The notes below the pieces were generated by a model, which worked only from the letters and a program-made list of their open reading frames with translations, made no database searches and was not told the origin of the DNA. A stretch of DNA of 64,000 nt from Heptranchias perlo (taxonomy: Eukaryota): positions 33,666,001 to 33,730,000 of the forward strand of contig NC_090351.1 of NCBI RefSeq assembly GCF_035084215.1, given 5' to 3'. Within the stretch, counting starts at the first letter, position 1, and each line of letters opens with the position of its first letter. Made by a program: the position numbers and the translations under genes. This document shows positions 21,261 to 34,774 of the stretch, one piece after another.

Positions 21261-21360
21261 CTATATTTTCAGTTTGACCAAAATGGCCCAAACAAGCAGA
21301 ATGGCAAAGAACACCCAGCGTAGAACGCTCCATGTAAAATAGTACTGAGAATTCTTTTGC
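21261..21360 (-). CDS. Exon 4, transmembrane exon with intramembrane Arg (YYFTWSVLRWVFFAILLVWAILV-KLKI*)
   Basis: Acceptor tcttctatctacccag|; TAG at 21263-21261; a canonical CG|gtaagt donor follows at 21247/21246. Confidence 0.88.
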
Positions 21361-24300
21361 CTGGGTAGATAGAAGACAGAATGGTTTAATCTAAATAGTT
21401 CCTCTTTCTGGAACTTCCTAAACGTTCAGGATTACCTTGAAGGTGTGAATCATTTGGTTACACGTGTGGTGGAAAGATTCTGCTTAGGAGCCCCTGGAGC
21501 ACACTGGGAAATTACGCACCACGGCCCGTGAGATTCTACCTATTAAAATTAGCGGACAGAAAATATCGGGTTGGAAGGTCCGCTATCTCCCAGGATCTGC
21601 TCTTAGCCTGTGCCAGGAGTGCTGAAGTGGAAAATCATCCCCTTATTTCTCCCGATAGATATGGGGCATGATTTTAACCCCAAGGAACGGGTGGGTTGGA
21701 GGTGGTGGGGGGGCGGTGGGTGGCAGTAAAAATTTTAAAAGTTGGGAGCAAGAACGAGTCCCGGCTCCAACTCCAACGCATCTGGGTACGTGCGTGTTTC
21801 AGAAGCCCAGAAGTCCCATCGGCAATTAAAACCGGCGGGCTGACATTTAAAGGGGGAATTAAGACAATTGAAGTACTTAAATCAATTAAATTTGTGGGGA
21901 TTGAGGCAGACAATGATTTTAACTCTACCTGAACGTGTCTCCTGTAGCCTCTGAAACACGCCATGGAAACGGAGGTGAGTTGCAGCCGGCAGCCATTTGG
22001 ACATTCATACCAATGATTGACAAATGGGGATAAAAGGTGAGTTTTTGAGGCAGGGCACTCAGTTCTCTCAGACAAACATTTGGCTGGGAGTTCTTTGTGT
22101 TTAGACTCAGATTTCTTTGTTCACAGTCAGAATTCTTCTGTTCAGATATATTTGCCTGCATTTTGGACCCCCTCAAACCGACACCATCAGGATGGGGGGC
22201 GGGGGTGGGTGGGTGCAATGGATGTATTGCACTACATCTGAGGAGGAGGCACATCACCATCTGCGCCAGGCATGGCATGCAGTTCTGAGAGTTGCAGCTC
22301 CAGAAGACAGAGGTGTGCCACAAGGACCTGCAGAAGAGCAGAGAGGGTAACAACGGAAGGGCCGTCGTCACAGGAGCTACCACCCTCGTGAAAGGGTCGA
22401 CAGGCAGTGGCTGAGCTTCCTGGACCTCTCTGAGGAGCAGTGCCTACGAAGTCTCGGATTGAGTTGCCAGGTGGCTGCAGCCATCTGCAGGCTCCTTCAT
22501 GCAGAGCTGCTCCCGACTGGGCCTGGTGACCACGCATTGCTCGTCGCAATTAAAGTCACCACTGCCCTCAACTTCTTCAACTCTGGATCCTTCCAGGGCA
22601 CCACCGGTAACATCACCGGGATCTCTCAGTCATCTTTCCATAAGTGTACACGACAGGTCACAGTTGGCTTGTTTGCCAGGGCATCCCACTACGTCAACTT
22701 CCCCATTGGCAACATCAGCCAGACTGAGAGGGCAATGGGTTTCCACTCTCTGGCTGGCTTCCCATGGGTACAGGGTGCAATTGATTGCACATACATAGCA
22801 ATCCGAGCACCTCCACACGAGCCAGAAAAGAATATCACTCTATCATTGCGCAACTGGTTTGCGACCACAGTAAGAGATTTCTGCAGGTGTGTGCCAAATT
22901 CCCAGGCAGCCGCCATGATTCTTTCATTCTGCGTGAATCCAACATCTCGGCCCTCTTCCATGCACAAGACAAACTTAAGGGACGGCTCCTTGGAGACAAG
23001 GGATACCCCCTGCAGACGTGGCTCATGACACCTGTGAGGTATCCCACCAGCGAGGCGCAGAAGTGGTACAACAATGGTCCCAGCACCACCAGGTCTGCCA
23101 TAGAGCAAGCCATAGGACTGCTGAAGATACACTTCCAGTGCCTGGATCGATCTGGGGGAGCCCTTCAGTACTCACAGGCGAGGGTGTGTAGAACAATACT
23201 CATGTGTTGCATCCTGCACAACATCGCTCAACAGAGGGGGTTACCGGTAGATGAGGTCCCATACACCCCACAAGCAGTCGCACCTACCATCAACACTGAA
23301 GAAGATGAGGAGGAGGAGGAGGATGACGATGGGCGAACCATTGGCGAAGCAGCGTCTCACCTGGCTGCTCGGCGTGCCGGGGAGTCACTCATACTTGATA
23401 AATTCTCATAGGGAGATCTGCAAAGTGACTACAACCAGGTACTCAGGCCACCTGTAATGATCACCACAACCACTTCTGGGTTTAACCCAGGCAGGTTTGT
23501 CTGCGTGTGGACAACAGACACCAGGAGGTCCCACCCCCACTTAGCTGGCAGGCCAATACTTGAAAGGGCAATGTACCCCATTGAGATACTGGTGGTACTT
23601 AATATTTTGTGTTTTGGACAATTAAAATAAATTTAACCTTACCGTCCGGGTTTCCCATCGCTTCCGAATCACGTTAAGCGAAAACAGGCGGGAAGGGCCA
23701 GATCCATGAGGTGAATGCCTTTATTTCACTGCTTGTGGGCCCGGAGGAGCAGGAGTGCTTCATCCAAGCCCATCAAGCTCACCTGGCCGAAAGAAACCCC
23801 GCGATCGGTGCCCCTCCCCCCCCCCCAACAATGGTGGACCCCAACCTACCTCCGACTCTTCACCCGACATCCAGCGACCTCTGATCTTCTTCCCGGCCCC
23901 TCCCCCGATCTTCTTCCCGGCCCCTCCCCCGATCTTCTTCCCAGCTCCCCAAACTCCCATGCCCGCTTACCTTCCGAGTTTCGCACCCGAAAATCTTCTC
24001 CCCCACCCACCCACCCCGCTGCCTTCCCGGCTCGAAGTTAAAATTTACCCCATGTAACTTTACGTAATATCACCTGTTCTACACTATCGCACAAAGTTAA
24101 AATGATTTTGCTACTGGTGCAAAAAATGCATTTCGTTCCACAGAAAATGAGATTCCACACTTTGGGCAAACATTCACCTGCACATCCCCAGAGAAACAGG
24201 TGATAGCGATTCGGCAGCCTCTTTCACACTATCGCACAAAGTCAAAATTACCCCAAACACTCCCAGATCAGGTATAATATTGGATTAGACATAGGGCAAG

Positions 24301-33300: not shown

Positions 33301-34774
33301 ACCCGGACTTCAAGGGTTAAGTTACGAGGAGAGATTACACAAATTGGGGTTGTATTCTCTCGAGTTTAGAAGGTTAAGGGGTGATCTGATTGAAGTTTAT
33401 AAGATATTAAGGGGAATGGATAGGGTGGATAGAGAGACACTATTTCCGTTGGTTGGGGATTCTAGGAGTAGGGGGCACAGTCTAAAAAATTAGAGCCAGA
33501 ACTTTCAGGAGCGAGATTAGAAAACATTTCTACACACAAAGGGTGGTAGAAGTTTGGAACTCTCTTCTGCAAACGGCAATTGATAGCAGCTCAATTGCTA
33601 AATTTAAATGTGAGATAGATAGTTTTTTGGCAACCAAAGGTATTAAGGGATATGGGCCAAAGGCAGGTATATGGAGCTAGATCACAGATCAGCCATGATC
33701 TTATCAAATGGCGGAGCAGGCACGAGGGGCTGAATGGCCTACTCCTGTTCCTATGTTCCTATCTTACATATTATTCCTTATAACTTTTTTAAAAATTGCC
33801 GTTTAGTTTTACTTTTCTTACTCTTGCGCATTAAGACTGCAGAACATAATAGCGTGGTGAGTGAAACAGTAACAAACAAAAAGCGATTAAAAAGATTATG
33901 ACATGGATCCCATAATAGTATGAAGAGGCTTTTCTTAGCAGCAGATTACTGGCACACCAAGCTGTATGGATTCATAAAATGGCTTATTTGAAACTGAAAT
34001 TTAAATAAACCTTACAAGAATAGTTGAAGCTCTGTTGGAAAGAAAGAATGTACTTGCATTTATATAGCACCTTTCACGACCTCAGGACATTCCAAAGCAC
34101 TTTACAGCCAATAAAATACTTTTGAAGTGTAGTCACTGTTGTAATGTAGGAAACATGGCAGCCAATTTGTGCACAGCAAGGTCCCACAAACAGCAATGAA
34201 ATAAATGACCAGATAATCTGTTTTTTAGCAATGTTTGTTGAAAGATAAATATTGGCCAGGACACCAGGGAGACCTCCCCTGCTCTTTTTCGAAATAGTGC
34301 TATGGGATCTTTTCTGTCCACCCGACAGTACAGCACTCCCTCAGTATTACACTGGAGTGTCAGCCTGGTTTACATGCTTAAGTCTCTGGTTGAAGCTACA
34401 ACCATCTGACTCAAAGGCAAGAGTGCTACCACTGAGCCACGGCTGACACTAAAGGGATAGGGACATACTGGGGCAGATTTCCCTGTTTCCTTGCCTGGGT
34501 ATAATTACCCGGGCACAGCGCATATAGGAACATTTGGTAGGGAGGATTATACCCCCCTAAGGGAGCCCTCATGATTTTCCATCCATTTAAGTTAACTGCT
34601 GACGTTCACAAGCTTATAATCAGACAAAAATCTGGAAGAAACTTCTGCTAATAATTCTTAATTCTATAAAACTTGCACAGATATATGCAATTGTTATATA
34701 CCCATATATGTTCTGAACAAATATTGTTTCTTACCTGATAAGGAGATCATGAAAAGAAGAAATGCGAAATCCAT
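21261..34774 (-). CDS. Complete 4-exon CD300/pIgR/MDIR-like single-IgV activating-type receptor, join(34774-34735, 26656-26324, 25958-25931, 21360-21261), 166 aa
   Basis: All introns are GT-AG with compatible phases (1,1,2); 40+333+28+100=501 nt. Protein: MDFAFLLFMISLSVTRATITGPDAVNGSVGQSVHITCTYDTYYSNYQKYWCRGHAWEACTVLIQTQGPRKVNSDGRITATADNEAGEFSVTMERLTVNDQGWYWCGIERYFLDLLSPVKLKVNEDYLSDKETQRQKNSQYYFTWSVLRWVFFAILLVWAILVKLKI*. Confidence 0.88.
21664..24051 (+). mobile_element. PIF/Harbinger transposon with a frameshifted HARBI1-like DDE transposase, in intron 3 of the receptor gene
   Basis: Imperfect 15-bp TIR GGGCATGATTTTAAC / GGGGTAAATTTTAAC; TSD ATG (21661-63, 24052-54); motifs GAIDCTY, HDSFIL, LGDKGYPL, RSAIEQAIGLLK. 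Confidence 0.92.
24334..24951. mobile_element. Harbinger-type MITE
   Basis: Ends GGGGTAGATTTT / AAAATCCAGCCC; TSD TCA (24331-33, 24952-54). Confidence 0.8.
25356..25540. mobile_element. Short fold-back MITE
   Basis: 19-bp TIR GGGG(C/T)AATTTTAACCTAAC; the interior is also self-complementary. Confidence 0.75.
25931..25958 (-). CDS. Exon 3, 28-nt stalk micro-exon (DYLSDKETQ)
   Basis: ttccctcattctcag|ATTATC...CCAAAG|gtaaat; converts phase 1 to the phase 2 needed to keep the TM exon in frame. Confidence 0.8.
26324..26656 (-). CDS. Exon 2, IgV domain of the CD300/pIgR/TREM type
   Basis: Acceptor ttttcacacctaacag| and donor GAAG|gtaagg; 333 nt, phase 1-1. Motifs: ITCTY, KYWC-x7-C (second disulfide typical of CD300/pIgR), FSVTM..L...DQGWYWCG, and an NGS sequon. 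Confidence 0.95.
28281..28404. mobile_element. Penelope-derived hairpin mini-insertion with a 14-bp flanking duplication
   Basis: TTCACCAAATTATG at 28281-94 and 28391-404; inverted ACAAATGTAAGGAATCTTACAACAC arms match 47347-47372. Confidence 0.75.
29600..29935 (+). mobile_element. Deu-domain SINE
   Basis: Same core and tail as 11225-11542 and 53325-53780. Confidence 0.8.
29945..30527 (-). mobile_element. CR1 RT fragment
   Basis: QHGFMKGKSCLTNL, DFQKAFDKVPH, RFADD. Confidence 0.9.
31507..32075 (-). mobile_element. CR1 3' fragment
   Basis: Antisense LRGDLIEVFKI and RRNFFTQRVV; TTCTATG tail. Confidence 0.85.
32192..33762 (+). mobile_element. Young CR1 LINE with an internal 460-bp deletion, in intron 1 of the receptor gene
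   Basis: ORFs 32280..33032 and 33080..33493 are near-identical to the 54490-57430 copy; (TTCCTATG)n tail. Confidence 0.95.
34045..34450 (-). mobile_element. Deu-domain SINE
   Basis: Reverse complement of the head, core and tail seen at 53325-53780. Confidence 0.8.
34735..34774 (-). CDS. Exon 1, signal-peptide (leader) exon MDFAFLLFMISLS, phase 1
   Basis: ATG...TTATCAG|gtaagaaac; 13 mostly hydrophobic codons + 1 nt; its phase matches the IgV exon acceptor. Confidence 0.85.

Follow-up and report, generated by a model that had tools for sequence, protein, structure and literature searches.

Receptors of the mammalian CD300 family (CD300f/CD300lf, CD300a, CD300c) have a single V domain that contains an additional pair of cysteines, and their genes form clusters of activating and inhibitory members; the V domain binds lipids, and the activating CD300b and CD300e carry a central transmembrane (TM) lysine and pair with DAP12. 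The ectodomains of CD89 (FcalphaRI) and NKp46 are of the C2 type and belong to another family. In pIgR, the segment of the first domain (D1) before KYWC has a role in Ig binding. FCER1G-like annotations appear to exist in newer shark genomes. According to the accessible part of PMC13107469, CD89 binds FcRgamma by means of an arginine close to the top of its TM segment, polar residues being found one turn higher (QNLIR), NKp30 and NKp46 use zeta or zeta-gamma, and DxxxT/S adaptors take a central lysine, NKG2D being the exception. In the parts available, PMC4016189 reports FcRgamma as absent from cartilaginous fish, as does PMC5742104, which appears to be based on it; if this holds, zeta or an unrecognised relative would be left as partner.

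A receptor cloned earlier from the clearnose skate (ABC86795.1 / A0S0E7) is recorded as 'modular domain immune-type receptor' (MDIR), with no number in the name. It is probably MDIR1 of Cannon et al. 2006, which has a charged TM residue. MDIR2 is ABC86796, the next after ABC86795 in accession order (PMC3031540), and this order is suggestive. Here we report a gene for a receptor of this kind, together with the leader exon of an inhibitory-type paralog, in a stretch of 64,000 nt of the Heptranchias perlo genome (contig NC_090351.1, positions 33,666,001 to 33,730,000; hereafter the window).

The gene is real, spliced and already annotated in NCBI as 'CMRF35-like molecule 7' (XP_067863719/20/21), and its skate relative is deposited as an MDIR; the term 'cryptic' used in an earlier note on this DNA is therefore not appropriate. 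With an exon 3 of 55 nt (Table 1), the product of 175 aa equals the NCBI prediction for Heptranchias perlo (P0001) letter for letter. Prediction and name are both automatic, and orthology to a mammalian CD300 member cannot be read from the number 7.

Table 1. Features of the receptor locus (positions in the window).
Feature	Position	Strand	Evidence
Exon 1 (5'UTR and 40 coding nt)	34735..35247	-	sequence; contig X4 record 11
Exon 2 (333 nt; V-set Ig domain)	26324..26656	-	Pfam; PDB match; transcript contigs
Exon 3 (55 nt; stalk)	25931..25985	-	identity with P0001; depth arithmetic
Exon 4 (114 nt; end of stalk, TM, stop)	21247..21360	-	sequence; donor; depth; 3' end inferred
Exon 5, inferred (~1.29 kb; 3'UTR)	12930..14219	-	acceptor score; contig sizes; 3' limit approximate
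Leader exon of paralog P0014 (40 nt; GT donor)	5019..5058	-	13/13 residues identical to start of P0014

The coding part of exon 1 (34774-34735) begins with the ATG at 34774 and encodes the bulk of the predicted signal peptide, and the stop codon is located at 21263-21261. The earlier note had placed the ATG, the leader and IgV exons, the start of the TM exon, the stop and the GT/AG boundaries correctly, and the Ig exon is indeed the only one visible as an open reading frame of at least 90 aa. Its limits for the gene (21261..34774) are too narrow: the transcript extends to 35247 or beyond, and the strong donor at 21247, which ranks 12th and is the likely 3' end of exon 4, suggests a fifth, non-coding exon. 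The candidate fifth exon has the best-scoring acceptor downstream of exon 4 (crude splice matrix), an AATAAA at 12947 near its end and a sequence that is unique within the window, and transcript contigs of 806-1270 nt would fit inside it. About 33% of the region 21261-34774 has a second copy elsewhere inside the window.

Splice sites were scored with a crude matrix, covering the 3,381 GT sites of the minus strand and 4,212 AG sites. By this measure the donors at 34735, 26324 and 25931 rank 4th, 3rd and 23rd and the acceptor at 21360 ranks 21st, and the acceptor of the IgV exon is weak (277th). Transcript contigs were drawn from four of eight listed sequencing runs, whose kinds were guessed, none being recorded as RNA. 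One contig (run X4, record 11) covers 34735-35247 and continues with 26656; positions 34735 (513 in the record) and 26656 (514) abut with no extra letters, which bears out the junction proposed earlier. A contig of run X5 extends 35 nt into intron 1, and run X8 has intronic contigs at low depth, so this junction is seen in X4 only. Exon 2 is covered by contigs of X2 and X4 with 0 differences. The junctions 26324/25985 and 25931/21360 were not among the 15 joints listed (600 further ones existed), repeats having swamped the table, and support for the junctions other than exon 1-2 is only indirect. A control for chance gave 6 TM-like reading frames after 100 strong acceptors in the window, so a TM exon alone is not rare; a 33-residue match of the TM exon to an ortholog is rare (tblastn with P0002, E 5e-13).

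The earlier note held that the exons join in frame only via a micro-exon of 28 nt. Use of an upstream acceptor, at 25985, keeps the frame with an exon of 55 nt, and of the two models only this one equals P0001; the 28-nt alternative, of 166 aa and spliced at an in-frame acceptor inside that exon (25958), differs from it and was rejected as the main form. Depth arithmetic, which is clean for exons 3 and 4 in X8 only and for exon 4 in X5, yielded an exon 3 of 56 nt in X8 (70, 91 and 176 nt in X5, X4 and X2) and an exon 4 of 114 nt in X8 and 111 nt in X5 (177 and 405 nt in X4 and X2). Exon 3 in Heptranchias perlo is most likely 55 nt long. The 28-nt form may be a real alternative, because its acceptor outscores that of the 55-nt form (5.9 vs 4.0, crude matrix) and three skate proteins have a short stalk. 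Skipping of exon 3 would give a form of 154 aa that is frameshifted, lacks the TM and has its stop 22 nt ahead of the last donor; a Cetorhinus isoform X2 in NCBI (P0009), likewise of 154 aa, shares this frameshifted end.

The receptor is built of a leader, a single V domain of the CD300/pIgR type, a short stalk, the TM helix and the four-residue tail KLKI. Its V domain matches the V-set in Pfam (E 3e-17), exon 2 encodes one N-glycosylation sequon (N26), and the cysteines would form the putative disulfides Cys37/Cys105 and Cys51/Cys59, with an extra pair after KYWC as in the CD300 family. The best single-domain PDB match is CD300f (73 bits; ~30% identity to mammalian CD300); its alignment was not returned in the short-query PDB search. 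CD300 is also best by fold: CD300lf/CD300f occupies ranks 1-10 with an AlphaFold model that is modest (mean pLDDT 61; other four models 41-44) and gives fold support only, and matches in the ESM Atlas are exclusively pIgR-like/CMRF35-like clusters. pIgR has a related V domain; the shark receptor differs from pIgR and the Fc-alpha-mu type in having one domain, a gap and poor match against the D1 segment before KYWC, and no long tail.

The TM segment reads WSVLRW, as in the earlier note, with Arg157 (codon 21320-21318) near its outer end. The helix spans approximately residues 151-171, in which Arg157 is the sole charged residue, in place of the central lysine of CD300b/e. Because only 14 apolar residues separate Arg157 from Lys172, and the best 21-residue hydrophobic windows (151-171 and 155-175) both include it, Arg157 probably lies within the outer half of the membrane. 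The receptor has an outer TM arginine and lacks a signalling tail, as zeta/FcRgamma-coupled activating receptors do. CD89, NKp46 and NKp30 share the outer arginine and a polar residue one turn above, a likeness in how they work only. The rule linking such an arginine to zeta/FcRgamma coupling, on which the earlier note relied, is stated in the accessible part of PMC13107469. Remains of an ITIM tail past the stop were sought by tblastn with P0004 and P0014, whose only meaningful matches were the V exon and the leader exon at 5058. Read-through of the stop, considered for the basic codons that follow it, was rejected, given the nearly constant end point of the 14 orthologs.

WxxxRW is present in 14/14 full-length orthologs (13 named species and one record), with the C-terminus 16-17 residues after the arginine. 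This count leaves out the frameshifted isoform P0009, P0027 (whose model has no TM exon), the fused model P0031, P0032 (which is an isoform of P0015) and the later additions P0193, P0195 and P0199-P0201. Position -3 from the arginine is polar in all 14 (S 10, N 3, R 1), and tryptophans at -4, +1 and +10 are as conserved as the arginine itself. In nine distant TM segments, chosen for the motif, no column is invariant apart from W, R and W, and a TM-only profile built from nine sequences found WxxxRW in 23 of 23 matches (these nine included), all with V-set domains. The segment also occurs in chimaera, sturgeon, arowana and coelacanth, and it is shared by pIgR-like proteins with several domains from sharks, rays, sturgeon and coelacanth. 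Relatives that have the motif, three further Heptranchias proteins (P0184-P0186) among them, extend 29-43 residues past it and have basic stop-transfer runs.

The clearnose skate receptor (P0012; E 1e-57, 54% identity over 97%) resembles the shark receptor in its single V domain, leader type, WxxxRW, lack of a tail and side of the tree, and has a stalk that is 10 residues shorter, which fits an exon of the 28-nt type. Its V domain is 61% identical to that of the shark receptor, hardly more than the 60% between the latter and its inhibitory paralog in the same shark; the case for orthology is therefore made by the tree and the common C-terminus. In an unrooted V-domain tree, 14 activating-type and 9 inhibitory-type rows (24 other rows uncounted) are split at 99/94 support, and the receptor groups with ABC86795 and sequences of sharks, rays and chimaera. 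Of the phylogeny called for in the earlier note, this tree of non-mammalian rows covers the grouping with a skate MDIR. Judged from these sequences, the shark gene is likely the counterpart of the skate receptor. Domain, PDB, fold, tree and ortholog evidence support the earlier assignment to a cartilaginous-fish clade of the CD300/pIgR/MDIR-like family with activating-type anatomy.

The leader exon at 5058, which the earlier note overlooked, matches the start of P0014 (XP_067863717), a protein of 253 aa with an ITIM/ITSM tail; the remainder of its gene lies beyond the left end of the window, and its accession neighbours those of the activating-type gene. In 8/8 paralog tails examined, an ITIM is accompanied by a further, distal motif, either ITIM or ITSM. 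Since this leader exon matches an ITIM/ITSM-tailed paralog, the region looks like a paired-receptor locus, with adjacent genes, related ectodomains and opposite tails, in a multigene cluster of activating and inhibitory forms (5058 leader; P0014 and P0184-P0186, on a contig of equal length). The 60% identity of the two V domains does not imply a shared ligand. Accessions are also neighbours in Mobula birostris (072134935/6) and M. hypostoma (062922507/10), as are locus tags in Chiloscyllium punctatum (chiPu_0020301/2, one contig of 130,944 bp); in Narcine the numbers lie further apart (069798193 vs 069798203). Synteny is judged from the window and from the order of accessions, and adjacency of accessions is indirect evidence.

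We propose, with a probability of roughly 60%, that Arg157 docks a CD3zeta/FcRgamma-type ITAM dimer and that the receptor forms a pair with the paralog at 5058, in which it is the activating member. The signal peptide would be cleaved and the receptor displayed on the leukocyte surface, export depending on prior binding of the adaptor in the ER; Arg157 would dock onto the aspartate pair of the dimer. Ligand binding would lead to ITAM phosphorylation and recruitment of Syk-family kinases, and SHP-type phosphatases on the tail of the paralog would oppose the signal. The ligand may be CD300-like, a lipid or cell-surface one; a literature search yielded no structural account that could be used for lipid binding.

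Alternatively, the receptor could activate through DAP12 or DAP10, or an adaptor could bind to a Trp/Phe face of the helix regardless of the arginine, which we consider unlikely. According to the accessible part of PMC13107469, NKG2D pairs an arginine with DAP10, but its arginine lies mid-membrane, as opposed to the outer third for Arg157, and DAP12-type partners use a central lysine. The reported lack of FcRgamma in cartilaginous fish (PMC4016189, PMC5742104) would favour such adaptors. In the catfish receptor IpLITR 2.6b, replacement of the TM lysine by arginine or alanine left surface expression and adaptor recruitment unaffected, and DAP12 was gained once the charge was neutralised (PMC4810170, available part), so the charge rules of mammals may not hold in fish. 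The equally conserved tryptophans would suit a helix face, but in the nine motif-chosen segments the arginine is invariant along with two of them.

A non-signalling decoy, scavenger or adhesion molecule, in which Arg157 only anchors the helix and the isoform without exon 3 is secreted, seems distinctly improbable: the four-residue tail and the TM-less 154-aa form, with its counterpart in Cetorhinus, would agree with it, but an anchor at the membrane boundary leaves just 14 apolar residues for the span, and the WxxxRW of the TM-profile matches argues against a mere anchor. There is very little to recommend a GPI-attachment signal and a lipid-anchored V domain, despite a hydrophobic segment that runs nearly to the C-terminus and the small polar residues Asn146 and Ser147 about 30 residues before the end, because the extensions of the motif-sharing relatives fit a true TM. 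Least probable is a receptor for IgM/IgW that takes the place of the Fc receptors and pIgR that sharks are reported to lack, for although pIgR chains lead the whole-sequence PDB list and the accessible part of PMC13337447 poses as an open question how cartilaginous fish manage without Fc receptors, this lead is a sum over several domains (pIgR D1 alone, 48-49 bits vs 73 for CD300f), the D1 segment matches poorly, and there is a single domain and no transcytosis tail. That reading concerns the ligand and is compatible with adaptor docking.

The receptor belongs to a known family, in which it is unexceptional, and carries little weight as a gene discovery. Its value lies in the context, an inhibitory-type neighbour that is conserved among sharks and rays and a motif that extends to bony fish and coelacanth; a literature search, with subscription journals mostly outside its coverage, gave no paper on this pair or motif. 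Given the reports of missing FcRgamma, the locus is a compact test case for ITAM adaptor choice in cartilaginous fish, and if sharks truly lack FcRgamma, the pair offers a direct handle on the switching-on of their innate cells. It is possible, if somewhat doubtful, that a 1:1 activating/inhibitory pair has stood in tandem since before the shark-ray split and that WxxxRW is an ancestral docking module of jawed vertebrates for the zeta family. Such a 1:1 tandem pair would contrast with the fast-turnover paired receptors of mammals.

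The minus-strand receptor gene (leader, IgV, stalk and transmembrane (TM) exons) was placed accurately by the earlier note: its ATG lies at 34774, the leader exon measures 40 nt, and the exon ends are GT/AG throughout. The 28-nt micro-exon that the note held to be required is one of two in-frame forms: acceptor 25958 yields a protein of 166 aa that differs from the NCBI model, and the upstream acceptor 25985, which gives a 55-nt stalk exon, yields a 175-aa protein identical to it. That model, XP_067863719/20/21, is a Heptranchias perlo protein predicted by NCBI as 'CMRF35-like molecule 7'; since it is identical to the coding sequence in the window, the gene is annotated and not, as had been claimed, cryptic. 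The annotation is a prediction that may share data with the runs examined here, and hence is no independent proof. What the note presents had been known before, with the NCBI model publicly available and a relative from skate deposited as a modular domain immune-type receptor (MDIR).

Features located in the window
Feature	Coordinates	Strand	Characteristics
IgV exon	26656-26324 (333 nt)	-	GT/AG ends
Stalk exon	3' end 25931	-	GT/AG ends; two in-frame acceptors 27 nt apart
TM exon	starts 21360, stop at 21261	-	GT/AG ends
Candidate exon 5 (3'UTR)	14219 to ~12930 (~1.3 kb)	-	strong acceptor at 14219, AATAAA at 12947
Leader exon of paralog P0014	5058-5019 (40 nt)	- (as receptor gene)	matches first 13 residues of XP_067863717
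Harbinger-type DNA transposon, broken	22351-23411 (intron 3)	+	frame 22785-23411 matches DDE_Tnp_4, E 7.5e-27
LINE-type reverse transcriptase fragments	54703-56466, 50292-51335, 15280-16242	-	RVT_1 match in 3/3 tested
LINE-like frames	1450-2253, 16917-18100, 29900-30527, 32265-33493, 41357-42321		by similarity

Skipping of exon 3 would give a form of 154 aa that lacks the TM and stops at 21271-21269 (minus strand); the annotated isoform X2 of the basking shark Cetorhinus (P0009) is equally long and is frameshifted towards its end in a similar way. Past the regular stop, at 21260-21247 (minus strand), basic codons continue the frame to a strong donor, as if an old stop had shortened the tail; no tail remnant was found further downstream.

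Sequence of the IgV region was partly present in eight sequencing runs, none of them recorded as RNA, and the fraction of query words found in four of these runs (0.42) equals the share of the IgV exon in the query (333/801). Contigs of four of the eight runs (X2, X4, X5 and X8) were placed on the window. Record 11 of X4 joins 34735-35247 directly to 26656-26324 with 0 differences, removing an 8,078-nt GT-AG intron between exons 1 and 2, so that the first junction proposed for checking, 34735/26656, is present in a contig. The two junctions after exon 2 were not among the 15 joints listed, beyond which there are 600 further joints. In all four runs, the match of a 1.7-1.8-kb contig ends exactly at 26324 and is followed by 975-1439 further letters. 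For exons 3 and 4, depth arithmetic came to 56 + 114 nt in X8 and to 70 + 111 nt in X5, and X2 and X4 showed excess cover; this support for the later part of the gene is indirect and strongest in a related organism. An exon 4 of 114 nt would end at a strong donor at 21247, 14 nt 3' of the stop; by the usual rule, a stop that close to the last donor escapes nonsense-mediated decay, and so would this transcript. The remaining 806-1270 contig letters fit inside the stretch 14219-12947, which is unique in the window, and the candidate 3'UTR exon located there is likely the fifth exon of the gene. Unspliced molecules or DNA must be present as well, since the X5 contig includes 35 nt of intron 1.

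The V domain matches Pfam V-set, its best solved relative per domain is CD300f (73 bits vs 48-49 for pIgR D1), and CD300lf/CD300f fill ranks 1-10 of a fold search whose query was a modest predicted model. A profile search recovered 30 proteins with sharks, rays and chimaera at the top, including ABC86795.1, a skate protein recorded as a 'modular domain immune-type receptor' (54% identity over 97%); the earlier assignment to CD300/pIgR/MDIR-like receptors agrees with these results. Cannon et al. in 2006 reportedly described MDIR1 with a charged TM residue, and ABC86795 is probably MDIR1. Excerpts of PMC3031540 give MDIR2-4 as ABC86796, 86797 and 86799 and describe MDIRs as activating/inhibitory receptors in multigene families. 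In a V-domain tree of 47 rows, weakly rooted and with one long-branch row falling inside, 14 activating-type and 9 inhibitory-type rows separate at 99/94 and the chimaera rows group with the inhibitory side at 98/93; given the root, the long branch and the chimaera placement, this tree provides no firm sequence of events ahead of the divergence of sharks and rays. P0015 and P0016 (chimaera and a second record; both on the inhibitory side of the tree, 98/93) combine an activating-type TM with V-domain loop features like those of inhibitory-type shark paralogs.

All 14 full-length activating-type orthologs carry the TM motif WxxxRW and end 16-17 residues after it. Between Arg157 and Lys172 of the receptor lie 14 apolar residues, which alone are too few to span the bilayer, and the best hydrophobic windows take in Arg157. 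A TM-only profile built from nine such segments found 23 proteins, every one with a V-set domain and WxxxRW; the 14 that were new to the profile include sturgeon, coelacanth, arowana and three further Heptranchias pIgR-like proteins. This word-based search gave no tetrapod match, a negative that weighs little as evidence of absence. The three multi-domain pIgR-like proteins P0184-P0186 of Heptranchias, encoded on a contig as long as that of the receptor gene, have identical TM segments of the WSVLRW type and a longer tail.

The Arg near the TM top, with a polar residue at -3 in 14/14 orthologs, resembles CD89, which docks the FcRgamma dimer via an Arg in this place with polar residues one turn above; the partner of NKp30 and NKp46 is zeta or zeta-gamma (PMC13107469, available text). 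The same logic of Arg position is reported for macaque KIR (PMC8102735, excerpt). By analogy, the receptor would assemble with a zeta/FcRgamma-family dimer, ligand binding would lead to ITAM/Syk signalling, and the ITIM/ITSM-tailed Heptranchias paralog P0014 would oppose it (probability about 0.62). Against FcRgamma as partner counts its reported absence from cartilaginous fish (PMC4016189 and PMC5742104, available parts); against Arg docking counts that in catfish IpLITR 2.6b the charged residue is dispensable (PMC4810170, excerpt). DAP12-type assemblies take a central Lys (PMC13107469, available text). Coupling through DAP12/DAP10, or independently of the charge, is unlikely. A decoy that does not signal is rather improbable; a GPI-anchored protein and an antibody receptor are both very improbable. 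The question of how cartilaginous fish get by when they lack Fc receptors is still listed as open (PMC13337447, available portion), which gives some value to a test of the adaptor.

The leader exon of P0014 is identical to receptor exon 1 plus donor at 31/46 nt, and the rest of the P0014 gene lies beyond the window edge. The P0014 protein combines a V domain 60% identical to that of the receptor with a TM that bears no charge, and its tail holds one ITIM and one ITSM; all eight such paralogs examined have a pair of ITIM/ITSM-type tyrosine motifs in the tail. In Chiloscyllium punctatum and two species of Mobula, the two members of the pair have adjoining accessions or locus tags, which indirectly suggests that the tandem layout is conserved beyond Heptranchias. 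Neither the tandem pair nor the WxxxRW motif was described in the literature searched, which lacked the MDIR paper and the majority of subscription articles. Four database models (P0031, P0044, P0175 and P0181) apparently fuse adjacent receptor genes, which points to tightly packed tandem clusters.

Among the repeats, frames near 6800-7700 resemble Harbinger-type frames by appearance. The LINE fragments of the window presumably belong to the CR1/L2 family, and the translations of the copies at ~32.3-33.5 kb and 54.7-57.5 kb look near-identical.
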